DNA of 24,214 bases from a virus. Lineage: Duplodnaviria > Caudoviricetes. Where the stretch lies: IMG/VR virus record IMGVR_UViG_3300030372_003039, positions 1 to 24,214 of that record. One strand, written 5' to 3'. The translations under genes and the position numbers were made by a program. A model generated the notes under the pieces. It made no database searches, had not been told where the DNA came from, and was given only the letters and a program-made list of their open reading frames with translations. Shown here in pieces: positions 2,074 through 23,727 of this stretch (its first letter is position 1; every line of letters starts with the position of its first letter).

Positions 2074-2688
2074 ATGAGTGAAGCGCTAAAAGTATTGCAA
2101 GACAAGTGTGGCTGCACGCCAGATGGATCGTTTGGCCCCAATACGGCTAAAGGTATTGTAAAGCATTATGATCTATCGCCAGAGGAAGGGGCGCACTTGC
2201 TTGGTCAAGTTGTGCATGAAAGCGGTTCGTTCAAGTATGTCAAAGAGAATCTAAATTACTCAGTAGAAGCGATGATGAAAGTCTGGCCTAGTCGCTTTCC
2301 TGATGAAGAAAGTGCAGAGCCGTATGCACGTAATCCCAAAGCATTAGCTGAAAAGGTTTATGTTGGCAGAATGGGCAATGAAACACCCAGTATGGCTAGC
2401 TTATATATTGGACGCGGATTTTTACAATTAACTGGATATAATAATACCAAAGCATTTGCTGCAGATATGGGTAAGCCAGAGGTTATCAATGACCCATCCT
2501 TGCTAGAGAAAGAATATGCTTTCGATACCGCTATATGGTTCTTCAATAGCAATGGCTTGTTTAAGCTTGCTAGAGAGGGCGTAACCGACGAGGTGATTAA
2601 GAAGATTACCAAGCGAGTGAATGGTGGCTACACTGGCTTGGATCATCGGAACAAAGAGACTAAAAAAATCTATCAATGGCTTAGCTAA
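2074..2688 (+). CDS. Endolysin, glycoside hydrolase family 19 with short N-terminal PG-binding-like motif
   Basis: AHLLGQVVHESG, ENLNYS, YIGRGFLQLTGYNN and ITKRVNGGYTGLDHR are GH19 hallmarks; DGSFGPNT resembles the PG_binding_1 signature. Confidence 0.92.
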   Translation: MSEALKVLQDKCGCTPDGSFGPNTAKGIVKHYDLSPEEGAHLLGQVVHESGSFKYVKENLNYSVEAMMKVWPSRFPDEESAEPYARNPKALAEKVYVGRMGNETPSMASLYIGRGFLQLTGYNNTKAFAADMGKPEVINDPSLLEKEYAFDTAIWFFNSNGLFKLAREGVTDEVIKKITKRVNGGYTGLDHRNKETKKIYQWLS

Positions 2689-2897
2689 GGTCTAGGCATA
2701 GGCTTCAAAAGCTCATTAGAGGGCGTGGGAGTGCCTTTACAGTGAATAAGCACATTGTCATAGTGATTTTCCATTATGTCAAACATAGCTTCTTTAGAAT
2801 AGCTACAGGCGTCATAGCTGGGAAACAATATGTTATACGTTAGTGGCTCACCTTGCACGAAATAGGTTAGCACCATGAATGTGTAGTATTTAATCAT
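2685..2897 (-). CDS. Hypothetical protein (hydrophobic N-terminus, two Cys)
   Basis: 70-aa ORF with strong SD GAGGAG; convergent with endolysin. Confidence 0.7.
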   Translation of the reverse strand: MIKYYTFMVLTYFVQGEPLTYNILFPSYDACSYSKEAMFDIMENHYDNVLIHCKGTPTPSNELLKPMPRP

Positions 2898-2932
2898 TGT
2901 AATCTCCTCATTGGTTTATTAATATTCTTTCG

Positions 2933-2991
2933 GGGCAGTAAAGCTAGCGTATGCAAGCTACTCAATCCTATATTGTAAAACCTTACTGCCC
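2933..2991. ncRNA. Candidate structured RNA (closing stem + two inner hairpins)
   Basis: GGGCAGTAA(2933-2941)/TTACTGCCC(2983-2991) inverted repeat enclosing TAGC-GTATGCAA-GCTA and CAAT-CCTAT-ATTG; intergenic. Confidence 0.4.
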
Positions 2992-2996
2992 TACGA

Positions 2997-3602
2997 TTAA
3001 TCTGAAAATAACTCTCGGCCTTTATCTGTTATAAAGAATTTACGATCAAAAAGACTTACTTTTTGTTTCATAAAACCTTTTGCATAAAGTCTATGCCGCA
3101 TTTTTCTTAAAGCTTTTTCATATATATCTGCAACTCTCGTACCCGAAATTCCCATATCTTTAGCTATATCTTTAAAACCATCACCATCAATCTGATGCAT
3201 TTTGATAACTTTTAGCTCTCTTGGCGTAAGACCTGATATAGCAACCTTAACGACATCAAGTTGTTCCAGCGCTTTTGCTGGATTGTTGTCAGACATGATT
3301 TGCTTAACCTCATCTAAGCTTGCCTCAAAAGACGCTGTAGATTTTTTGAGCTTTATATCTCTCATATGATTAGGCCAAAGCTGCTCCATGTCTTTTCCCA
3401 AATATGCAGCAATATCAAATGCAAGCTGCGTCCAACCTTTTTTGCCGTAAGGCTTAGTTTTCATTCCAACTAGGCTACCTATATGACTTGGATTCCTACC
3501 AATTTCTCTAGCAAATTCTGCAACGCTATTATGCTTACTTAAAATAGCTTTTAGCAAACGTGCGTTTCTTACCGTTACTTTTACATCTAAATCTTTAGCC
3601 AT
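2997..3602 (-). CDS. Transcription regulator: N-terminal Cro/XRE-like HTH + C-terminal sigma70 region-4-like HTH
   Basis: SVAEFAREIGRNPSHIGSLV (HTH) and LTPRELKVIKMH...FKDIAKDMGISGTRVADIYEKALRKMRH (sigma70_r4 pattern). Confidence 0.75.
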   Translation of the reverse strand: MAKDLDVKVTVRNARLLKAILSKHNSVAEFAREIGRNPSHIGSLVGMKTKPYGKKGWTQLAFDIAAYLGKDMEQLWPNHMRDIKLKKSTASFEASLDEVKQIMSDNNPAKALEQLDVVKVAISGLTPRELKVIKMHQIDGDGFKDIAKDMGISGTRVADIYEKALRKMRHRLYAKGFMKQKVSLFDRKFFITDKGRELFSD

Positions 3603-3604
3603 GC

Positions 3605-3781
3605 TTAATCCTTTGCCGCAAAAAAAGATGGCGTTCTTTGAAGATTTCGTGTTTCTCTCCTATCTTCTCGCTCCTCTTTTCGCAGATTCTCCCACTTAAT
3701 TTTATACATTTCTTCATATAATATTCTGCGTCTTTCGGGTTTGTCTGCACTGAATAAATCACTTATTATCTGATTGTTCAC
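3605..3781 (-). CDS. 58-aa hypothetical charged protein
   Basis: GTG start after GAGGAG; (M)NNQIISDLFSADKPERRRILYEEMYKIKWENLRKEEREDRRETRNLQRTPSFFAAKD*; ends 2 bp before the next start. Confidence 0.5.
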   Translation of the reverse strand: MNNQIISDLFSADKPERRRILYEEMYKIKWENLRKEEREDRRETRNLQRTPSFFAAKD

Positions 3782-3959
3782 TTATCCCTAACTCCTCTTT
3801 AATCTTATACAACAATAACATCATTTCATCTGTGTCATGCTTTCTATGATTGTTCTGCGAAAGAAAGTCGGCACGCATTACATCTATCTTACGCTCAAGT
3901 CGCTTCATCAATGTATATAGATGCATCAAATTCGTCTTTTTTAATATTCTTTCATCCAT
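3759..3959 (-). CDS. Hypothetical protein
   Basis: 66-aa ORF, SD AGGAG, within leftward operon. Confidence 0.65.
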   Translation of the reverse strand: MDERILKKTNLMHLYTLMKRLERKIDVMRADFLSQNNHRKHDTDEMMLLLYKIKEELGISEQSDNK

Positions 3960-4038
3960 ACAATGCCACTCCTATCCAAGCTAGAACCACCACGCCAGTT
4001 AGCAGCGCTATGGCTATGGTCTGCAGTTTAGCTTTCAT
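3952..4038 (-). CDS. 28-aa single-TM microprotein
   Basis: MKAKLQTIAIALLTGVVVLAWIGVALYG*; SD AGGAG upstream. Confidence 0.55.
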   Translation of the reverse strand: MKAKLQTIAIALLTGVVVLAWIGVALYG

Positions 4039-4177
4039 CTTCTACTCCTGTTCCTTCGCAAGCTTCACACGTTTGCTTGTCTGTATCTAAATAACCGACA
4101 TCACGGTTAAACCCGTGAGGCTTGGCTACCTCTACAGTAACCTCACCCCAGCCACCACATTCTTTGCAGTAGTTCAT
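4028..4177 (-). CDS. 49-aa DnaJ-type zinc-finger microprotein
   Basis: MNYCKECGGWG...CEACEGTG: two CxxCxGxG motifs; SD-like AAGG upstream, ATG overlaps upstream stop. Confidence 0.7.
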   Translation of the reverse strand: MNYCKECGGWGEVTVEVAKPHGFNRDVGYLDTDKQTCEACEGTGVEDES

Positions 4178-4362
4178 TTACTTACCTTAAAATTCTTGAC
4201 CACATCATCAACCAGCAAATTCATGTGATCTATGCTTTGGCAAATCGCCTCTATGTCACTAAGCCGTACACTGGCTTGGCGAGTGACCGCTTTGAGTCGC
4301 GCTTCCTCTGCAAGATATGCAGCGCTCTCGTAGGCTATTTTATATTCGTCAATTTTTTTCAT
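4174..4362 (-). CDS. Hypothetical protein (start re-assigned to MKKIDEY...)
   Basis: AAGGATAAACCA-ATG gives an SD plus the shared start motif; the longer ORF would overlap the promoter. Confidence 0.7.
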   Translation of the reverse strand: MKKIDEYKIAYESAAYLAEEARLKAVTRQASVRLSDIEAICQSIDHMNLLVDDVVKNFKVSK

Positions 4363-4382
4363 TGGTTTATCCTTTTTATGTG

Positions 4383-4423
4383 TTGACACATATCAATATG
4401 ACTGATAGACCATATCATGTCAA
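4383..4423. promoter_or_regulatory. Overlapping divergent sigma70 promoters with repeated candidate operator
   Basis: + strand TTGACA(4383)-N17-TAGACC with TG extension; - strand TTGACA(4423)-N17-CATATT; CATATCA repeated at 4389 and 4411. Confidence 0.65.
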
Positions 4424-4451
4424 TATAAAAATGCTACAAAGGAAAAATAAA

Positions 4452-4598
4452 ATGCAAAACGAAATCACATACTACGGATTTGAAATCTGGAAAGATTGGG
4501 ATGATAAATGGAAAGTCGCAATCTTAGGTTGGGAGTGGGAGTTTAGCACCTTAGAAGAAGCAAAAAAATTAGTAAAAGAGAACTGGAGAAGGGGGTAG
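4452..4598 (+). CDS. 48-aa Trp-rich hypothetical protein
   Basis: MQNEITYYGFEIWKDWDDKWKVAILGWEWEFSTLEEAKKLVKENWRRG*; SD AAGGA; first gene after rightward promoter. Confidence 0.6.
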   Translation: MQNEITYYGFEIWKDWDDKWKVAILGWEWEFSTLEEAKKLVKENWRRG

Positions 4599-4641
4599 CC
4601 CCTTCCTGGCTCGTAAGCCATTGATTTTAAAGGAGAAAATT

Positions 4642-4815
4642 ATGCAAAAGATAGAAACAAAGCAAGTGCTCTTACGACTGCGAGATGATGTAAACGCAGG
4701 CATGGATGCACTAAAAGCAAGAAATCGCATGAGCAAATCAGTGATAGCTGAGAACGCAATCAGAGAATACTTGGCAAAGCATGATATAAATTTGACAGAA
4801 CCAAAGGCCGACTAA
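4642..4815 (+). CDS. Ribbon-helix-helix (CopG/Arc-like) regulator
   Basis: TKQVLLRL beta-strand, then helices DDVNAGMDALKARN and SKSVIAENAIREYL; SD AAGGAG supports ATG 4642. Confidence 0.75.
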   Translation: MQKIETKQVLLRLRDDVNAGMDALKARNRMSKSVIAENAIREYLAKHDINLTEPKAD

Positions 4816-5234
4816 TGGTAAATGGGCGTAATAAAGGGGCTTCTTTTGAATTACAACTAGCCAGAGAGTTACAACTAGAGCTAGGCATATCTTTCAAAAG
4901 AGACTTAGAGCAGTATCGGGCAAGTGAGCATGGTGATCTTATACCCAGCAATGATAACTTCCCATTTTTAATAGAAGCAAAGCGGTATAGCAAAGGCGCA
5001 GTCGGTGGTTCTGCAGCTTGGTGGGATCAAGCAGTAGCCGCAGCTAAACGCGCTGGTAAACTGCCATGCCTAGTATACAAGTATGACCGAAAGCCTGTCA
5101 GGTTTGTGATAGATGTGCTTGCAGCTTATCAGTCTGGCTATGAGTTTAAAACAGAACCGCCCGAACATGGTAGGTTAGAAATGGACCTACACACGTTTTG
5201 CTGGATTGCAAGGGAGTTGATGAATGAACACTAG
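4815..5234 (+). CDS. Holliday junction resolvase, Hjc-like PD-(D/E)XK nuclease
   Basis: GRNKGASFE...GDL...FLIEAKR motif pattern; WWDQA...KLPCLVYK. Confidence 0.8.
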   Translation: MVNGRNKGASFELQLARELQLELGISFKRDLEQYRASEHGDLIPSNDNFPFLIEAKRYSKGAVGGSAAWWDQAVAAAKRAGKLPCLVYKYDRKPVRFVIDVLAAYQSGYEFKTEPPEHGRLEMDLHTFCWIARELMNEH

Positions 5235-6066
5235 AGTTGACCTAGAGATGAGCAATGAGGATTACCACGACAAGTCTCAGCACCCACATATTAGCTCAAG
5301 CGATATAAAAGAAATTGCTGCAACAAGTGTTTTGCATTGGGCAATCAAACAAGATAAGCCACGCAAGGAAACACCTGCAATGCGTATGGGGTCTATGCTG
5401 CACAGCATGATACTAGAGCCGCATAAAAAAGAATACGTGCGTGGATTACCAAACAGGCTAAAGCGTAAAGAATGGGCTGCAATGGAAGAAAAAGCAGCGA
5501 AACAAGGTAAGATATTGGTCACGGAGGGCGAGTATGATGAGGCACAAGAGCTTGCTGCAATTGCGCTAGATACATGCAAATTATTGCGCGAATCGGTCAA
5601 GAAAGAAAACTTTGTTGCTGAAGCAAGCGTCTTTACTTATTTAGATGACCTTAACCTTGCTGTAAAGTGCCGCCCAGATGGATTGCTTATGCCAACAAAA
5701 GAAGGTGAGCAAGGCATCATATTAGACATAAAGAAAACCAAAGCTACTACGCCGCTAGAGTGGGAGAAAGAGGTAGTTCGGTATCATTATGATTTACAAG
5801 CGTGTTGGTATTTAATGACAATGCGACAGGCCGAAATGCCTTGCAACAAGTTTTATTTTATAGCTGTTAACGGCGATACTGGCGTATCTACAGTACACGA
5901 ATTATCAGAATTGTATCTGAAATATGCAGAAAAACGCATGTATCAGGCAATGCATAAACTTGTCGATGCACAAAGCACAGGCAAGTTTGACACAGGGTGG
6001 GATGATGTTAATGTTATCCACCTGCCAGCCTTTCTCGAAGATGAGCTAGGCGAAGAACCATTTTAA
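5224..6066 (+). CDS. PD-(D/E)XK exonuclease (RecE/ExoVIII C-terminal, DUF3799-like)
   Basis: MSNEDYH, ISSSDIK, TPAMRMGSMLHSMILEP, KCRPDGL, ILDIKKT, YHYDLQACWY. Confidence 0.85.
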   Translation: MNTRVDLEMSNEDYHDKSQHPHISSSDIKEIAATSVLHWAIKQDKPRKETPAMRMGSMLHSMILEPHKKEYVRGLPNRLKRKEWAAMEEKAAKQGKILVTEGEYDEAQELAAIALDTCKLLRESVKKENFVAEASVFTYLDDLNLAVKCRPDGLLMPTKEGEQGIILDIKKTKATTPLEWEKEVVRYHYDLQACWYLMTMRQAEMPCNKFYFIAVNGDTGVSTVHELSELYLKYAEKRMYQAMHKLVDAQSTGKFDTGWDDVNVIHLPAFLEDELGEEPF

Positions 6067-6081
6067 CTTAGGAGTAAACCA

Positions 6082-6741
6082 ATGAAGATATTAGACAACG
6101 GTGATGTAGTATTTAGCAATGTTAAAGCACTATATCCAAAGCTAAACAGAACGTACCACTTTAGCTCAGAGCAGGGCAAAAGCGTGCCTTGTGATGCATT
6201 AGCTGATGGGGCTGCATATACAATAGACTTTGAGCTTGATAAAAAAACCTGCATAGATTTTGATAAGGAATGCACAAGAGTCTACAAAGAAGCAGCAGAT
6301 GCAGACAAAAAGAAAAAGTGGAAAGCTGATCCGACTTACTTGCCCTATAAAGACACAGGTGAAAGCTTCACAGGTAAGGCAAAGCTAAAAGGAGCTTACT
6401 CAGGTGAGACCACAAGGCCACCAGTGCAGAAAGATGCAGAGAGAAATAGCTTGCCTGCTAACTTTGAGCTTACCACGGGCAGTACGGTAAATGTCTGGGG
6501 AAAACTTTTTGCCTACAATACAGGTGCGGTATCTGGCGTTAGCTTTCGCTTAAAAGGTGTACAGGTGCTTGAGCTTGCAGAGCAAGGCGAAGTAGATGAT
6601 CCATTTGCTGCAACAAAAGGATTTAGCGCCAGTAATGCACCAAAAACTAGCGAACTAGCTGCTGATTCAACAGGTAGCTTGCTAGATGGTAAAGATGACC
6701 AGCAAGATGCAAATGATATGGATGACGAAATTCCATTTTAG
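6082..6741 (+). CDS. ssb: Single-stranded DNA-binding protein (T7 gp2.5-like)
   Basis: ALYPKL, GSTVNV, GVSFRLKGVQVLEL motifs and acidic tail DMDDEIPF; lies between exonuclease and primase. Confidence 0.8.
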   Translation: MKILDNGDVVFSNVKALYPKLNRTYHFSSEQGKSVPCDALADGAAYTIDFELDKKTCIDFDKECTRVYKEAADADKKKKWKADPTYLPYKDTGESFTGKAKLKGAYSGETTRPPVQKDAERNSLPANFELTTGSTVNVWGKLFAYNTGAVSGVSFRLKGVQVLELAEQGEVDDPFAATKGFSASNAPKTSELAADSTGSLLDGKDDQQDANDMDDEIPF

Positions 6742-6748
6742 GACTATG

Positions 6749-6788
6749 AAAAAAAATGCCCCAAGCGGAGCAGTTACACGCTTGGGGC
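6749..6788 (-). terminator. Rho-independent terminator on minus strand
   Basis: Perfect 10-bp stem GCCCCAAGCG(6758-6767)/CGCTTGGGGC(6779-6788), followed on the minus strand by A and 8 T. Confidence 0.75.
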
Positions 6789-6833
6789 GAGGTATAAACC
6801 CTTGGTAAACCAATGACATAAAACCGAAGGATT
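6749..6833 (-). ncRNA. Candidate ~85-nt antisense sRNA carrying UGUCAUUGGUUU seed
   Basis: Bounded by a predicted promoter (6840-6868) and intrinsic terminator; no credible ORF; seed is complementary to the AAACCAAUG start motif. Confidence 0.6.
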
Positions 6834-6839
6834 GATGAA

Positions 6840-6868
6840 ATGCTACAAGATAATGGGGCAAATAGCAA
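6840..6868 (-). promoter_or_regulatory. Predicted antisense sigma70 promoter inside the primase 5' end
   Basis: Minus strand TTGCTA(6868-6863)-N17-TAGCAT(6845-6840). Confidence 0.5.
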
Positions 6869-8759
6869 GACCACCACAGCATATTGGGATGAGTGGTCCA
6901 GCAAGATAATAACAGCGCTAGATTTAAAAAAAACAAGTCAACGAGAATGGCATGGTCGTTGCCCAAACTGCGGCGGCAAAGATAGATTCTGGATAACAAA
7001 CTATCACGGCGAGGTTAAGACGAATTGTCGGCAGTGCGAGGATTGGAAAAGTATCAATGAGATTTTGATTAAACAGGGGCTTCTCCCAGAATGGAAACCA
7101 ATGCAAAAAGAAGAAAAAGTAGTCAAGCTACCAGAGCCGCAAGAACTACACCCATATCTCACGCAAAAGCGGATTAAGCTGCATAACGCTAAAATAGATG
7201 AAGGTGACATACATATCACCATCATAAACAACAAAGGGCAGCGTGTAGGCACACAGTTTATTGAACCCAACGGCAAAAAGAAGTTTAGCTTTCAAATGCC
7301 CGTTACAGGCAATTTTGCAGTAGTCGGCGGTAAAATCGAGGACTTTGCCTATTTGTGTGAGGGGTTTGCTACTGCGGCGTCTGTAGCCGAAGCAACGGGC
7401 AAGCCTGCCGTGCACGCATTAAACGCTGGAAATTTAGTAGCGGTATGCAAGGCGCTGCAAGAAGTAAAACCAAATGCAAGGCTTGTCATAGCTGGCGATA
7501 ATGATGATGCAGGGCGTAAAGCCTGCGAAAAAGCTTTTATAGAATGCGGTGTAGAGCATATTTTGCCACCAACCGAAGGGCAAGACTGGAATGACGTATG
7601 GTGCACAAAAGGCGCTGAAGCTACAAAAAAGCTGCTACAACCAGTAAATGTACTTGATGAGGTAATATTTCCAGATCAGGCGCAAGTTCAGCTAGATACA
7701 AAATATATAGTTAAAAACTGGTTTAGCGAAAATACAATCTCACTTATCTATGGGCCAAGCAATGTGGGTAAATCTTTTTTTGTTACACATTGCGCTTGGC
7801 ATATCGCTGCAAATGAACAATGGTTAGGAAGTAGAGTAAATGGTGGTTGCGTGCTCTTGCTTGCTACAGAAGGCGGCTATCTATACCAAAATAGAATTGT
7901 AGCGCTGCAACAAAGCTATCCAGAGCATATAAATGTTAAGCTTGCAGTAAGACCTAGCCCAATAAATCTATATGACGCTGAAGAAGATATAGCAAAAGTA
8001 AAAGCTATTATCAGCGAACTAACAAAAAAGCATGGGCCAGTAAAAATGTTAATCATTGATACACTCGCAAGGGCTACATCTGGCGGTTATGGATTTGATG
8101 AAAATGACAACTCGGCAATGTCTCGATTTGGCGCTAAATTGGACGAACTGAGAGACGAAACAGGCGTTCATGTGTGTATCGTCCATCATTCGGGAAAAGA
8201 TAGCTCTAAGGGCGCTAGGGGTGCGAGTTCGCTTAAAGCGCTGGTGGATACTGAAGTTGAGCTTAGTCAGGACGAAGGGTCAAAAGTCAGGACCGCAAAA
8301 GCGACAAAACAAAGAGATATGGAAACTGGCTCAGAAATTAACTTTATACTGGAAATAGTAGAGCTAGGGCGAGACTCAGATGATGAGCCAGTGACAACTT
8401 GCGTTATCCGAGAGGCAACAAAAGATGAAATGGAGGACGCCGAAAATGAAACTAGGCCGCAAGGAGCAAACCAAAAGCTGTTTAAAAAGTGCTTTATGCA
8501 GCTTAGAGGTGAACGGGTAGGTAGCGCCAATCCGACAGGGGCAGGGTTCCCAGAAGCACGCAAATTCTGGTGCATAAATAAGGACGATTTAGAGGCGCAT
8601 TTTAGCGGCAAAGTGACAACAAAAAACCCTGCTCAAACCTTTGCTCAAACACTCACGAAATTAATCGAAAAAGGCTACTGCGAGATAAATGAGGGCAAAA
8701 TATGGATAATTGCTAAGGAAGGGCGATTAAGCTCAAGTGAGGAGGTTTCACCATTTTAA
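6840..8759 (+). CDS. Primase-helicase (Zn ribbon + TOPRIM + AAA_25/RepA-type helicase)
   Basis: HGRCPNCGGKDRF...CRQC Zn ribbon; LCEGFATA and IAGDNDDAG, DWND TOPRIM; Walker A GPSNVGKS; IIDTLAR; VHHSGKD..KGARGASSL. Confidence 0.93.
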   Translation: MLQDNGANSKTTTAYWDEWSSKIITALDLKKTSQREWHGRCPNCGGKDRFWITNYHGEVKTNCRQCEDWKSINEILIKQGLLPEWKPMQKEEKVVKLPEPQELHPYLTQKRIKLHNAKIDEGDIHITIINNKGQRVGTQFIEPNGKKKFSFQMPVTGNFAVVGGKIEDFAYLCEGFATAASVAEATGKPAVHALNAGNLVAVCKALQEVKPNARLVIAGDNDDAGRKACEKAFIECGVEHILPPTEGQDWNDVWCTKGAEATKKLLQPVNVLDEVIFPDQAQVQLDTKYIVKNWFSENTISLIYGPSNVGKSFFVTHCAWHIAANEQWLGSRVNGGCVLLLATEGGYLYQNRIVALQQSYPEHINVKLAVRPSPINLYDAEEDIAKVKAIISELTKKHGPVKMLIIDTLARATSGGYGFDENDNSAMSRFGAKLDELRDETGVHVCIVHHSGKDSSKGARGASSLKALVDTEVELSQDEGSKVRTAKATKQRDMETGSEINFILEIVELGRDSDDEPVTTCVIREATKDEMEDAENETRPQGANQKLFKKCFMQLRGERVGSANPTGAGFPEARKFWCINKDDLEAHFSGKVTTKNPAQTFAQTLTKLIEKGYCEINEGKIWIIAKEGRLSSSEEVSPF

Positions 8760-8790: not shown

Positions 8791-8910
8791 AAAACCGTGA
8801 GAAACCGTGAGAAACCGTGAGAAAATAGTGAAATCGGTTCATCTTCACGGTTTCACGGTTTTATATATATAAATAAAACCGTGATAATAGTGAACACGTT
8901 AAAACACGTT
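8791..8910. repeat. Iteron array / putative replication origin
   Basis: AAACCGTGA direct at 8792, 8802, 8812, 8876 and inverted at 8845, 8853; 12-bp inverted repeat around an AT-only spacer; AATAGTGA x2; AACACGTT x2. Confidence 0.75.
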
Positions 8911-9508: not shown

Positions 9509-9533
9509 AAAAAGGCCACTCAGTGAGCGGCCT
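9507..9533 (-). terminator. Rho-independent terminator for the leftward early operon
   Basis: Minus strand AGGCCGCTC-ACT-GAGTGGCCT followed by a T-run, between convergent genes. Confidence 0.7.
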
Positions 9534-9553: not shown

Positions 9554-9754
9554 TTAGTTTACCTTGGCTTGTTCAGCTTGCTTTATTTCTGCTAAGCCTG
9601 CAGCAAACCCTGCTAGTTGTTCTGAAGCATAGCCGTTGAGCGTGGAGTGCATTAGCAAGATAGCTATTTCTTTTCTGCGATACTCTGGCAAGCCTTGCAG
9701 TCTGCAAACTATATCTATCATTTCTTCATTGTCTATTTCGTTTTCCCATGTCAT
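9554..9754 (-). CDS. Hypothetical early protein (start re-assigned to MTWENE...)
   Basis: GGGAGTTAAACCA-ATG; avoids overlap with the upstream gene ending at 9759. Confidence 0.7.
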   Translation of the reverse strand: MTWENEIDNEEMIDIVCRLQGLPEYRRKEIAILLMHSTLNGYASEQLAGFAAGLAEIKQAEQAKVN

Positions 9755-9758
9755 TGGT

Positions 9759-10061
9759 TTAACTCCCTTTTGCTTTAGTTTTACTTTTTGGCGGCCACTG
9801 GATGTCGTATTCTGCAAATCTTTCGAGTTCCCATTCTGTCGGCTCTGTACCAAAAGCATTATCTAATAAATGATAACCACGCTCTAACTTACCAACGTCT
9901 GATACATAAAGGTCATGGCAATCGCATAGCATGCTTATAACATGCTCAAGCGTTTTCTTTAACTCATTGATTACTTCGGCTTGCTTTGCATCCATTGAGT
10001 CAAGCGTCTTAGCGTTTGCAATATATTTTTTTGCTTCGTTTTGAAAATGTTCTTTTGTCAT
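9759..10061 (-). CDS. Hypothetical early protein
   Basis: 100-aa ORF, GAAGGAATCAAACCG-ATG. Confidence 0.75.
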   Translation of the reverse strand: MTKEHFQNEAKKYIANAKTLDSMDAKQAEVINELKKTLEHVISMLCDCHDLYVSDVGKLERGYHLLDNAFGTEPTEWELERFAEYDIQWPPKSKTKAKGS

Positions 10062-10087
10062 CGGTTTGATTCCTTCTTGCTTTGGTT

Positions 10088-10354
10088 TTACTTGTAAATT
10101 GAAATTGAGAGGTAGCTATCATCATTAAAGCTTAAATTATGCTTTTTAGTTCCTACCGTTTCATAGATTGGATAACCGTGTTCATTTTTTACGATACGCC
10201 CATTCTTATGCTTCTTTGGCTGTCGGTCTGGCTCGTTTATCTCAACATGAAGGTAGGTTTCACAATCGTCTAAATATATGCTTCCCTCAAAGGTTTCATT
10301 GAGTTTCTTTTCAACTGCTTCCATTAGGTCGTAGTAAGTAAGTTTAATTTGCAT
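10088..10354 (-). CDS. Hypothetical early protein
   Basis: 88-aa ORF, AAGGAAAAACCA-ATG. Confidence 0.75.
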   Translation of the reverse strand: MQIKLTYYDLMEAVEKKLNETFEGSIYLDDCETYLHVEINEPDRQPKKHKNGRIVKNEHGYPIYETVGTKKHNLSFNDDSYLSISIYK

Positions 10355-10367
10355 TGGTTTTTCCTTA

Positions 10368-10562
10368 TTAATTTTCTAATTCTGTGACAACAGCCGCCGA
10401 CATAAAGCAAAGCCCTATTTCTTTTGGGTCAAGCTTACTAGCTATGTCAAAAGCATATTGTAAGCATTCTTTGGCCTTGTCGTTACTTGGAGCAGTTGCA
10501 GCAAGATGAATTGCTAATGTAAAAGCGTCTGATGCGTTGTTTATCTCTATTTCGTTTGCCAT
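10368..10562 (-). CDS. Hypothetical early protein
   Basis: 64-aa ORF, GGGAGTTAAACCA-ATG. Confidence 0.75.
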   Translation of the reverse strand: MANEIEINNASDAFTLAIHLAATAPSNDKAKECLQYAFDIASKLDPKEIGLCFMSAAVVTELEN

Positions 10563-10566
10563 TGGT

Positions 10567-10671
10567 TTAACTCCCTAAGTATTGAATTAGATATGGTGCA
10601 AGAAATACAGCGCCAGTAAAGAACAAGAATGTGATAAAGCCTAATAGGAATTGGATTTCTGGGGTGTTCAT
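10567..10671 (-). CDS. 34-aa single-TM microprotein
   Basis: MNTPEIQFLLGFITFLFFTGAVFLAPYLIQYLGS*; AAGGTCAAACCA-ATG; ATGA overlap; not in ORF track. Confidence 0.7.
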   Translation of the reverse strand: MNTPEIQFLLGFITFLFFTGAVFLAPYLIQYLGS

Positions 10672-11033
10672 TGGTTTGACCTTTCCATATCTAGGAGAAT
10701 GTTTGCCATAAATGGAAAATAACCATCTAAAACTCTACTGACTAACTTGTCGCTAGGGTTATCGTCTATTGAGCCCATCTCAATTGCTAAATCTATTATT
10801 TCTCCATTGTAACACGGTAGGCCAAACGGAATACCTTGGAGCCATTCAATCAAAGCTTTGTTCTTACCTAACCTAACTATCTCATGACCATATTCATTGC
10901 TGAAACGGTCAAAGATATGTGTAATCTTTTCGGCTCTGGTGGTTAACTTTTGTTCTTCATTATCTCGCTCTATATGGTCAAGAATGAAAGCTTCATAGCG
11001 CGGCTTGTAAACTGTGTGATGTACTTTAGTCAT
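10668..11033 (-). CDS. Hypothetical early protein (start re-assigned to MTKVHH...)
   Basis: AAGGGAAAACCA-ATG; 121 aa. Confidence 0.75.
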   Translation of the reverse strand: MTKVHHTVYKPRYEAFILDHIERDNEEQKLTTRAEKITHIFDRFSNEYGHEIVRLGKNKALIEWLQGIPFGLPCYNGEIIDLAIEMGSIDDNPSDKLVSRVLDGYFPFMANILLDMERSNQ

Positions 11034-11108
11034 TGGTTTTCCCTTTCTTATTATTGTTGTCATGCTTGGTGCATGTAAAGGCATTGCCGCAACAATGCCC
11101 TAGATACA

Positions 11109-11426
11109 TCAAGTATTTATTGCTTCGATTGCTTTAGTTACTTGGTTAGCGTCAACAAACCAATCTGATATGCTGCAATCTAAATTCAATCCTGTTTTCC
11201 TACTATCTCGTCCAGATGACCATTCACATTTACCTGTTAAAGTTGATGCATAATATCGTGAAACAAATTGACCATACTTTGAATGATTATATCTAGCGTC
11301 ATAAAACTCTATTAATGGATCATTGTCATTATGAACTCGACAATCATTTAAGCCATACTTGTCGCCCTCTCTCACTACACGTGCATTGAATGGTATTCCG
11401 TTTGGATTGTTTCCTAAATTAATCAT
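11109..11426 (-). CDS. Hypothetical early protein, first of the leftward operon
   Basis: 105-aa ORF, AAGGGGAAACCAA-ATG, just downstream of a predicted promoter. Confidence 0.75.
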   Translation of the reverse strand: MINLGNNPNGIPFNARVVREGDKYGLNDCRVHNDNDPLIEFYDARYNHSKYGQFVSRYYASTLTGKCEWSSGRDSRKTGLNLDCSISDWFVDANQVTKAIEAINT

Positions 11427-11464
11427 TTGGTTTCCCCTTTGTTTTTCTTCATGTGTATATCATT

Positions 11465-11493
11465 ATTATATCACAAATATATTTGCAAGAGAA
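11465..11493 (-). promoter_or_regulatory. Leftward early promoter (extended -10)
   Basis: Minus strand TTCTCT-N17-TATAAT with TGn extension (TGATATAAT). Confidence 0.6.
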
Positions 11494-11849
11494 AAAATCA
11501 ATAACTTATAAAAAAGATTTATTGAGAAAAGCTACCAACCACACACCAAAGCACAAGCCGCGCACGGGCACGCGCGATTACACTTAAGTAAAACTTAAGT
11601 CAAGCTTATTGTTTTTCATTGTTCATACTTTGCCAAACTTAGTACAATCAAGAACCGTAATAACGGCATTATGGCAAAGTGTTAACATAATACATATTAT
11701 ACGAAATATCATTCTGATATTATCTGCTAGGATTTGCATAGGTTTGGTCTGTATTGTTTTAAGTCTGGCAAAGTATAAACATTGGTGTGCAATGGTATAC
11801 AATTGCCCCCCCGTCTAGCCCCCACCCCTACCCCTATTATTATTATACA

Positions 11850-11878
11850 TTCTCACACACCAAATTTTGTGTTATATT
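11850..11878 (+). promoter_or_regulatory. Rightward promoter for packaging operon / leader RNA
   Basis: TTCTCA-N17-TATATT with TGn extension. Confidence 0.55.
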
Positions 11879-11884
11879 TTTCGC

Positions 11885-11941
11885 AGGGCTGCGTTTGTTC
11901 CATACATGCTTAGCTTCCTCCCAGCTGGGTAAAGCGTAGCC
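11885..11941 (+). ncRNA. Candidate structured small/leader RNA with UCCUCCC loop
   Basis: Outer stem GGGCTGCGTTT/AAGCGTAGCCC (with G-U pairs), inner GCTTAGCT-TCCTCCC-AGCTGGGT; starts at the predicted +1. Confidence 0.5.
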
Positions 11942-12012
11942 CCCCCCATGCCCCCATTGCTTTTGCAGCAATATCACAGTAATATTTCCGAAAAACAAAC
12001 GTGGAGCATATC

Positions 12013-12501
12013 ATGGCAGGCAAGCCAATGAAGCGCAAAGCACTTGCTGCGTTAGATAGTCGTGGCGGCCCAGAGGCGCTACAGGAAGCGCTTTTAGCAG
12101 GTAAGACAATCCCTCAGTTAGCGCGTGAGATAGGGTTAGATCGTGGGTATCTTCGGCGTTTGCTGATGAAGGACGAGCGTTACGCCCCTGCGATAAAGGA
12201 AGTTGAGCATTTGGTTGCTGATGCTCATGCCGAGGCAAGTTTTGAGTATCTTGATGAGGTGCATAAGCGCAGGCAGGGTGAGGTTGACGAGGCCAAGGAT
12301 GGCGTGCGTGATGCAAGCGAGGCGAATGTTAGTCAGATAGATTTGGGCATTGCCAAGGGGTATGCCTCTCAGCATAATATTATGGCGATGGCTTATAATA
12401 AGCAGAAGTATGGCAATGCTGGGCAGCAGAATGTTCAGATTAATATTGGTGATTTGCATTTGGATGCTTTGCGTAAGATGAAGGTTGTGCAGGGTGAATG
12501 A
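12013..12501 (+). CDS. terS: Terminase small subunit (putative)
   Basis: HTH GKTIPQLAREIGLDRGYLRRLL, helical core, directly upstream of terL; GGAG SD favours ATG 12013. Confidence 0.75.
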   Translation: MAGKPMKRKALAALDSRGGPEALQEALLAGKTIPQLAREIGLDRGYLRRLLMKDERYAPAIKEVEHLVADAHAEASFEYLDEVHKRRQGEVDEAKDGVRDASEANVSQIDLGIAKGYASQHNIMAMAYNKQKYGNAGQQNVQINIGDLHLDALRKMKVVQGE

Positions 12502-20446: not shown

Positions 20447-20977
20447 ATGACAAGTTGTAAATACAAAAAAGCCTACATTCAGCATAAGTCTAACGCCAAG
20501 CAGCGTGGCATAGAAATGCGTATGAAGTTTGATGAGTGGAAAGATGTTTGGGTGCAGTCTGGCTTGTGGGATCAGCGTGGAGTGGGTGCAGAGAAATACT
20601 GCATGTGCCGTCACAATGATCAAGGTCATTACGAAGCGGGTAATGTGTTCATTGCAACCAATAGCAGCAATTTGCATGACGGTAATATTGGCAAAGTATT
20701 GTCGGATGAAACAAAAGCCAAGATTGCAGAGGCTAGGATAGGCAAAGAACGTATTGATCTGCAAGGAGACAACAACCCCATGCGCAGCCCAGAGGCTAAA
20801 GCAAAAATCTCTGCGGCAGTTGGTGGTTCTAACAATTACAGAGCCAAGCAAGTCATATCGCCATTTGGTGAATACGGATCAACAACAGAGGCCGCAAAGG
20901 ATTTAGACATTCCATCGACTACAATTCAATGGCGTTGTCGGCATAATAAAGATGGATGGTCATACGCAATCGCATAA
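20447..20977 (+). mobile_element. Free-standing HNH-like homing endonuclease with NUMOD3-like and terminal HTH domains
   Basis: KSNAKQRGIE...CMCRHNDQGHYEAGNV..TN..N nuclease; GKVLSDETKAKIAEARIGK and NNPM.SPEAKAKIS NUMOD3-like; YGSTTEAAKDLDIPSTTIQWRC HTH; inserted in the tail operon. Confidence 0.75.
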
Positions 20978-23349: not shown

Positions 23350-23727
23350 ATGAATGATATGTCACACATAAGCGAGATAGACAGATGCCAGTCTTGGATA
23401 GAGGCTGCGCTTGAGTATTCGGGTGGCACGCACAGTCTTTCTGATGTGATTGAGGGCATTACTTCTGGCAAGATGCAGTTGTGGCCTGCGCCAAAGGGGT
23501 GCATAGTGACAGAAATTGTGGTATATCCTAGAAAAAAGATGTTAAATGTGTTTTTAGGTGGTGGTGAGCTAGATCAGCTTTTGGATATGCACAAAGATGT
23601 GATAGCATGGTCTAAAGCACAAGGATGCGAAGCTGTAACGATAACAGGACGTTTTGGATGGAAAAAACCTTTAAAAGCACACGGTTGGAAACCAATGCAT
23701 GCGTCATTTATTAAGGAGATTGGATAA
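23350..23727 (+). CDS. GNAT-like morphogenesis protein (P22 gp14/T7 gp13 position)
   Basis: AQGCEAVTITGRFGWKK motif; lies between nozzle and ejection proteins. Confidence 0.6.
   Translation: MNDMSHISEIDRCQSWIEAALEYSGGTHSLSDVIEGITSGKMQLWPAPKGCIVTEIVVYPRKKMLNVFLGGGELDQLLDMHKDVIAWSKAQGCEAVTITGRFGWKKPLKAHGWKPMHASFIKEIG

Follow-up and report, generated by a model that had tools for sequence, protein, structure and literature searches.

Why a single nine-letter word should stand on the start codons of so many early genes of one phage is the question raised by the locus described here. The window (the whole 24,214-nt stretch analysed, a 68%-complete virus record) carries repeated copies of AAACCAATG, the box, in which AAACCA runs directly into ATG. 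The phage is an SU10-like marine podovirus. The window encodes a GH19 endolysin, a RecE-like nuclease, a Gp2.5-like SSB, a primase-helicase, a terminase and an SU10 adaptor, a near-complete relative adds the SU10 capsid and portal, and the source runs are marine. The closest cultured matches of primase and SSB are CRP-822-type Roseobacter phages (34-44% and 39-51% identity, respectively), going by the portion of the source used (PMC12629253). The three CRP-822-type phages examined do not carry the box at their gene starts. Terminase hits of 78-79% come from two bins, one of Rhodobacteraceae and one carrying the label Ca. Endobugula; Rhodobacteraceae are plausible hosts, and the AGAAAGG-type Shine-Dalgarno sequence (SD) fits the alphaproteobacterial 16S tail. 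The small terminase has two alleles, about 99% and 57-58% identical to that of the window (12001-12501, compared with L014-L024), both found beside large terminases that are 97-99% identical, and a NUMOD3/homing-endonuclease-like gene is inserted among the tail genes (20447-20977).

The box is present in 11 exact copies against 0.42 expected, and 0 of 100 dinucleotide shuffles reached 11, so that an earlier estimate of less than one chance copy holds, with a GC content that was measured as 43% where about 40% had been assumed. It is the most frequent 9-mer of the window; the runner-up (7 copies) is a sub-word of it. The preliminary description had placed all 11 exact copies and both variants correctly (Table 1), and every exact copy reads in the sense direction of the gene or operon around it. 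Nine gene starts carry the box, seven as an exact copy and two as a variant. Seven of these belong, as had been claimed, to consecutive minus-strand genes (starts 11426, 11033, 10671, 10562, 10354, 10061 and 9754), here termed the array. The further claim that the box marks genes of other operons stands for 4362 and for the SSB at 6082 and falls for 2909, 6807, 7095 and 23689, which are not starts. With early and late start sets picked by hand, 9/21 early or replication starts have the box versus 0/28 late or lysis starts (Fisher p=1.4e-4), in agreement with its reported absence from lysis and tail genes; judged by eye, a stop codon adjoins or overlaps about 16 of these 28 late starts, which have no spacer free. 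The three start corrections drawn from the box (4362, 9754 and 11033) match the places where homologs begin. The 34-aa gene that had been missed is called 44 times in 48 arrays, its 30 full-length alleles showing 21 synonymous and 29 non-synonymous codon variants.

Table 1. Features of the window that bear on the box, with their positions (nt), strand and basis.
Feature	Position	Strand	Remarks
Box	2909..2917	-	Abuts, on the 5' side, the SD of the gene with its start at 2897; itself no gene start
Box	4360..4368	-	Start of first left-operon gene (4174-4362, 62 aa); candidate regulator
Ribbon-helix-helix-like (RHH) protein	4642..4815	+	PF01402 E 0.002, below cut-off; CopG family E 0.017
RecE/exonuclease VIII-like nuclease	5224..6066	+	Protein match; tracks motif class
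Box	6076..6084	+	Start of Gp2.5-like SSB (6082-6741)
Hairpin between SSB and primase	6758..6788	+	Predicted fold
Off-start box in primase leader	6807..6815	+	Sister lineages have their own motif at the same place
Primase-helicase (Zn ribbon, Toprim, AAA_25)	6840..8759	+	Domain search
Copy of the box	7095-7103	+	Codes for W-K-P-M inside the primase-helicase
Terminator-like hairpin at array end	9513..9533	-	Sequence scan
Box	9752..9760	-	Start of last array gene (9554-9754, 66 aa)
Box variant AAACCGATG	10059..10067	-	Start of 100-aa gene (9759-10061)
Box	10352..10360	-	Start of 88-aa gene (10088-10354)
Box	10560..10568	-	Start of 64-aa gene (10368-10562)
Box	10669..10677	-	Overlaps last codons of upstream gene; start of 34-aa hydrophobic anchor gene (10567-10671)
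Box	11031..11039	-	Start of 121-aa array gene (10668-11033); homologs begin at the same place
Long hairpin in common ~75-nt spacer	11066..11112	-	Second swap point
Box variant AAACCAAATG	11424..11433	-	Start of first array gene (11109-11426, 105 aa)
Candidate early promoter, extended -10 (TGnTATAAT)	11465..11473	-	Found by eye, missed by promoter scan
Incidental copy inside late gene	23689..23697	+	W-K-P-M codons

The off-start copies are of two kinds. The copy at 2909 opens only a 5-aa ORF, 14 nt ahead of the real ATG at 2897, and that at 6807 reads M-T-stop, 27 nt upstream of the primase ATG. The two in-gene W-K-P-M copies (7095 and 23689) compare with 0.93 expected given the proteins; relatives read HGW[KE]PL at 23689, and an internal primase start at 7101 was rejected, its Met not being kept outside the W clade. 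The left operon (window 2685-4362, minus strand) is a second variable array, seen in L019 and L303; in L019 a 258-aa gene is inserted into it and more box-like starts are present. Beside it lies a divergent promoter region (window 4369-4641) with facing TTGACA hexamers, which sister lineages conserve. Other strains are without the 48-aa gene at 4452, the joint 4432-4642 being found in four runs.

Relatives of the array were collected via the small terminase and via a sequence pattern. Before junctions were counted, 11 of 49 loci were dropped (L004, L042 and L060, which are not arrays of this clade, and 8 duplicates), together with four ORF families outside the array. The 38 arrays, some of them incomplete, show 37 gene orders; they draw on 45 families and have 79 junction types. 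Promoter region and terminator are the same in the relatives; the small genes that these enclose differ, and their order is inverted in some comparisons. Homology between relatives breaks at the box or the ATG: for the 41 junction types with both parents, the crossover window spans the ATG in 34 and the whole box in 27, and in 41/41 traceable types the left homology ends at or before +15. Homologous genes stand behind the box of the resident lineage. The tail at the 10560..10568 box stands before 11 different gene families among the relatives, and one independent contig joins two array genes near the SD. Because the genes carried no gene-specific ribosome-binding site (RBS) in these comparisons, the cassette unit is ATG, gene, stop and SD+AAACCA. 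One array family matches TreK and a sister array has an ArdC-domain protein; both matches fit early host-facing genes, as expected.

Most junction gaps measure -4 to 27 nt, and the upstream identity of array genes mostly ends within 25 nt or runs back into a common 75-nt hairpin spacer. This spacer (window 11040-11112, minus strand) follows many unrelated first-slot genes, beginning with their stop codon, and is a second swap point, with homology that starts at -76 to -93. Of the 21 pairs of its hairpin, 2 show a compensatory change in 2/9 sequences; the long bulged structure resembles the RNase III sites between T7 early genes. Junctions without the box exist at stop-start overlaps, alternative tails and the 75-nt spacer. 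Judged from the aligned sequences, array genes are shown to be exchanged between relatives at the box, a role as swap junction that the preliminary description missed and that is, on the same comparisons, the best documented one. In 18 arrays chosen by terminase, 61/97 starts have the exact box and 36/97 an inexact one; the 25 metagenome loci found by a box-containing pattern were left out of this count.

The word itself is a property of the lineage. In phages whose large terminase is 85-91% identical, the array is the same and other words are repeated before the ATG, among them GAGACA, GGACACAGC, TTAGACAAA and AAAGGCTAA. Homologous genes move between lineages, and AAACCA was found at 0/25 distinct homolog starts in the sister lineages. 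The same co-variation extends beyond the array. In permutation tests, the values of which overstate independence because lineages and classes were drawn up with the data already in view and because motifs are shared within the pairs D/E and W/K, the SSB RBS matched its own array (3/5040; 89/5040 with the last 8 nt only), the RecE RBS resembled the array RBSs of its own lineage (2/120), and the primase leader matched both the SSB RBS (4/362,880, nine lineages) and the array (8/40,320, eight lineages). An own-array match was absent at the primase start (4929/5040), the RHH start (182/720) and the left-first start (6/24).

In the primase leader the lineage motif recurs 33-63 nt upstream of the ATG, after the hairpin and often without an ATG of its own. 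An exact leader match of at least 8 nt was found in 19/22 close loci (8-13 nt) versus 5/41 distant loci; L173 and L175 match over only 5 nt. The leader ranks in the top 1% of genome windows in lineages W, F, A, C and E and in the top 5-9% in K, B and D, where 25/468, 59/1156 and 92/997 windows, respectively, match as well as the leader does; in F the best match of the array is not its own leader. Conservation of the W-clade leader cannot be credited to the box alone, because its four distinct versions are conserved well past it. All eight motif hits in G154 are sense (the RecE start, the SSB start, the primase leader, four array starts and one in-gene), and in G153, where none is antisense, 6/11 copies are array starts, SSB or leader (one by eye). 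The SSB motif of lineage C precedes the SD on its 5' side, and A, C and D have a leader copy without ATG. The leader motif is mostly unpaired in predicted folds and is placed in a hairpin loop for lineage E. Unstructured sites at or just 5' of the AUG are predicted on many early mRNAs, the primase copy lying further upstream. At the SSB start the box 6076..6084 is kept before alleles that are 59-91% identical and that diverge immediately past it.

Taken together, the box would be a lineage-specific tag and swap junction that likely serves also as the single-stranded operator of a putative phage repressor protein; we favour this reading while giving it slightly less than an even chance. The co-variation of early array, SSB start and off-start primase leader, a pattern read from sequence, supports the operator part. 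A putative phage protein would bind the single-stranded motif and repress translation of the early and replication mRNAs together. Selection for binding by this regulator would fix one word at many starts and so provide 9-15 bp of homology, which the RecE-like nuclease and Gp2.5-like SSB, or host enzymes, could use to insert, delete and reorder whole genes in register. The RecE-like nuclease and the SSB are likely recombination machinery. We infer repression rather than activation because the late genes are without the box. Against the operator is counted the position of the leader site, which at -33 to -63 is upstream of the usual ribosome footprint. A RegB-like cut site is indistinguishable here from a repressor site and was counted with the operator reading. 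The broader form of the proposal, that a widespread marine podovirus group has a new non-RegA sequence-specific RNA-binding repressor whose 7-13-nt operator is rewritten in each lineage and doubles as the swap joint, is held more tentatively still. If it is true, an incoming early gene falls under the control of the resident phage at once. A real regulator would be a new phage translational repressor with several natural specificities, tying gene control to modular evolution.

The preliminary description had offered a RegA-like protein as one reader of the box. The operator part of that claim gains support from the co-variation of the motif across array, SSB start and primase leader, and the kinship part is not: RegA (PF01818) was found in 0/5 records at E<=1 (the window and four records 95-100% complete), so that 'RegA-like' can describe only the mode of working. 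In nearest-neighbour tests the motif class was tracked by RecE (15/15), the RHH protein (12/12) and the first left-operon protein (7/7), a tracking that may reflect shared ancestry only. PDDEXK (6/15), Toprim (10/17), helicase (9/16) and large terminase (8/13) failed to track the class and were rejected as readers. The small terminase scored 13/13, but its L019 allele is 70% like that of a class-2 phage and 56% like that of its own class; the SSB scored 15/17, with swapped alleles about 46-59% identical that keep the resident motif; the Zn-ribbon N-terminal region of the primase scored 16/17, but W-clade genomes with an AAA_25 replacement keep their boxes. That replacement of the W-clade Zn-ribbon primase could be recent. 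Exclusion leaves three candidate readers: RecE, the RHH protein and the 62-aa product of the first left-operon gene. Of 61 database hits to this 62-aa protein, 57 are at least 90% identical; it matched no recognised family, its Atlas hits being 0.80 or lower. For the RHH protein a single-sequence model predicts two helices and no strand.

Several rearrangements were observed around the replication genes. In some close relatives, L007 (431-3177), L003 and L303, a 177-aa ORF, nuclease-like by eye and without a Pfam hit, now stands behind the leader and first five codons of the primase, and a different 739-aa AAA_25 primase/helicase follows it; a whole replication gene is replaced here from a point just within its start. 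In the window, AAACCGTGA is repeated on both strands directly after the primase-helicase (8792-8884), possibly as origin iterons. In the distant relatives L221, L222, L234, L237, L242, L247, L248 and L250 the terminase side lies directly upstream of RecE-SSB-primase and is divergent, a layout that is an older early-region rearrangement.

The rival that survives best does without a regulator: the box would be an ordinary strong A/C-rich RBS spacer, homogenised within each lineage by cassette recombination, and the SSB and leader copies would be relics of cassette insertion and excision, a direct repeat flanking the SSB. We regard it as unlikely. It accounts for crossovers that fall on the box, for boxes that are arbitrary and differ by lineage, and for SSB alleles that switch directly past the box. 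It also draws on the use of the word elsewhere: SD+AAACCAATG occurs 312 times in 151 bacterial genomes of the family of the Rhodobacteraceae bin, which is the presumed, not established, host family, versus about 65 for the reversed control (hand-summed), and in unrelated phages as well. AAACCAATG starts genes in 21/31 other viral loci without a DNA match to the window and is therefore also a generally good start context. The unrelated phage contigs L081, L082 and L100 have three or four consecutive SD+AAACCAATG starts, which suggests convergent use of one word. Yet the frequency is merely 0-10 per genome in those 151 genomes; by these counts the box is a legitimate but uncommon RBS in the family of that bin. 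Homogenisation would, moreover, have to be repeated on both flanks of an essential gene in most lineages, and it sits poorly with the motif 5' of the SSB SD in C and with the ATG-less leader copies in A, C and D. Box-mediated inversion at the SSB box was not seen among the close relatives compared. Should there be no regulator, the locus would still document, with well-mapped junctions, how cassettes shuffle over about 9 bp of homology.

An action on DNA is improbable in our estimation. Here the RHH protein would bind the asymmetric motif on double-stranded DNA and block transcription in the manner of the mycobacteriophage stoperators, which, in the sections of the source used, are oriented intergenic sites without symmetry to which a phage repressor binds (PMC9283540). 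Besides tracking the motif class, the RHH protein is 100% identical in 3/3 W-clade relatives while SSB, small terminase and helicase vary. The class motif is, however, absent by eye from the divergent promoter region of the RHH gene itself in lineages A, B, C and E, and the box hugs the ATG even beside a free 75-nt spacer. Integrase and immunity repressor were found neither among 28 window proteins nor among 35 proteins of two relatives, and the RHH assignment is weak (E 0.002-0.017).

Chi is an oriented recombination word and was the basis of comparison for a further rival, which we consider a shade less probable than the roadblock on DNA: the box as a Chi-like oriented signal at gene boundaries, read by the RecE-like nuclease or an annealing partner. 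RecE tracks the motif class and is 91-93% identical to that of the window in three divergent W-clade relatives, crossovers lie on the box, and the SSB, which is often swapped, has a box on either side. Against this, boxless junctions occur at stop-start overlaps and the 75-nt spacer, shared homology alone accounts for the crossover position, and selection per site would be indirect.

The antisense RNA of the preliminary description, for example a late-strand RNA from 11600-11800 acting in trans on the box, is very improbable: a one-mismatch complement in the leader region at 11737-11745 (matched by 4/200 shuffles), own-box complements with two mismatches in 4 other loci (equalled by 4-9 of 200 shuffles) and 2 of the six best duplex windows of G154 falling in the leader region are set against 14/19 leader regions with nothing above shuffles, a complement site kept in only 10/19 W-clade leaders yet present in 7 loci with other boxes, own-box complements that do not co-vary with the box, best duplex windows that share no common position across four genomes (the window and three near-complete ones), no antisense motif copy in G153 or G154, and a single Rfam hit (E 0.93). 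A tRNA search found none. The non-coding stretch 11480-12000, before the small terminase, has conserved GC-alternating and C-run blocks around a variable 37-nt inverted repeat (11617-11653/11748-11784); it is likely a genome end or packaging region rather than an sRNA.

Natural variation separates these options: relatives cross over at the box, whose sequence changes in step with that of an off-start site and with few candidate proteins. Neither this motif nor the SSB-primase-array co-variation was found described in the literature searched, which covered papers other than the SAS/PeSL supplements and their possible off-start sites.

The known systems are compared here on the parts of the cited papers drawn on. 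Start-associated sequences (SAS), described in 2011, and ESAS occur in Cluster K mycobacteriophages (PMC3203893) and Microbacterium Cluster EF phages (PMC7302621); in those parts the 2011 and 2020 papers leave the function of SAS open, and their authors raise both a binding factor and recombination. The present box has the basic trait, an asymmetric repeat in one orientation a few bases from start codons, at nine starts. Like SAS it belongs to the RBS of non-structural genes (9/21 early versus 0/28 late) and is conserved beyond the bases that pair with 16S. SAS are rare in the host genome; in the presumed host family here, SD+AAACCAATG occurs 0-10 times per genome. It differs in being 9 nt long with the SD excluded and the ATG included: in place of a 13-bp consensus with SD (GGGATAGGAGCCC type), spacer and ATG are invariant and the SD varies. 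It differs also in being swapped wholesale between sister lineages, in crossovers mapped to the box and in the off-start primase-leader copy.

The RegA, gp32 and gp43 operators of T4 resemble the box as unstructured A-rich sites at or just 5' of the AUG of many mRNAs (PMC3014915, PMC535899). About 30 mRNAs are under repression by RegA, which acts at AUG regions free of structure, and gp32 and gp43 are autogenous repressors (PMC3014915); the gp43 operator has a hairpin about 40 nt upstream of the gp43 start (PMC3014915, PMC535899). In the material used, RegA sites are without a clear consensus, whereas the box is nearly exact and no RegA homolog was found; the motif here does not follow the SSB allele. 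The stoperators of Cluster A mycobacteriophages (PMC9283540) are likewise many asymmetric, transcription-oriented intergenic sites for one phage protein, but as presented there they belong to temperate phages and are 13-bp sites on DNA for an immunity repressor, whereas the box is fused to start codons. As for integrons, the proteins scanned in the 68%-complete window and two relatives included no integrase, and no folded attC-like element was seen at the junctions.

The PeSLs of T4-type phages (PMC2839356, PMC4122927) share with the box, in the passages relied on, a repeated intergenic element that ends in SD+ATG and marks where small early genes are acquired, lost and exchanged. PeSLs have a sigma-70 promoter and a stem-loop, whereas most junctions here consist only of SD, spacer and ATG: 22 promoter-like sites were counted versus 22.9 expected, and of the elements only the 75-nt first-slot spacer has a hairpin. 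Without the SAS consensus or the promoter and stem-loop of a PeSL, the box, as far as its sequence context tells, behaves as a start-associated sequence and works as a PeSL junction.
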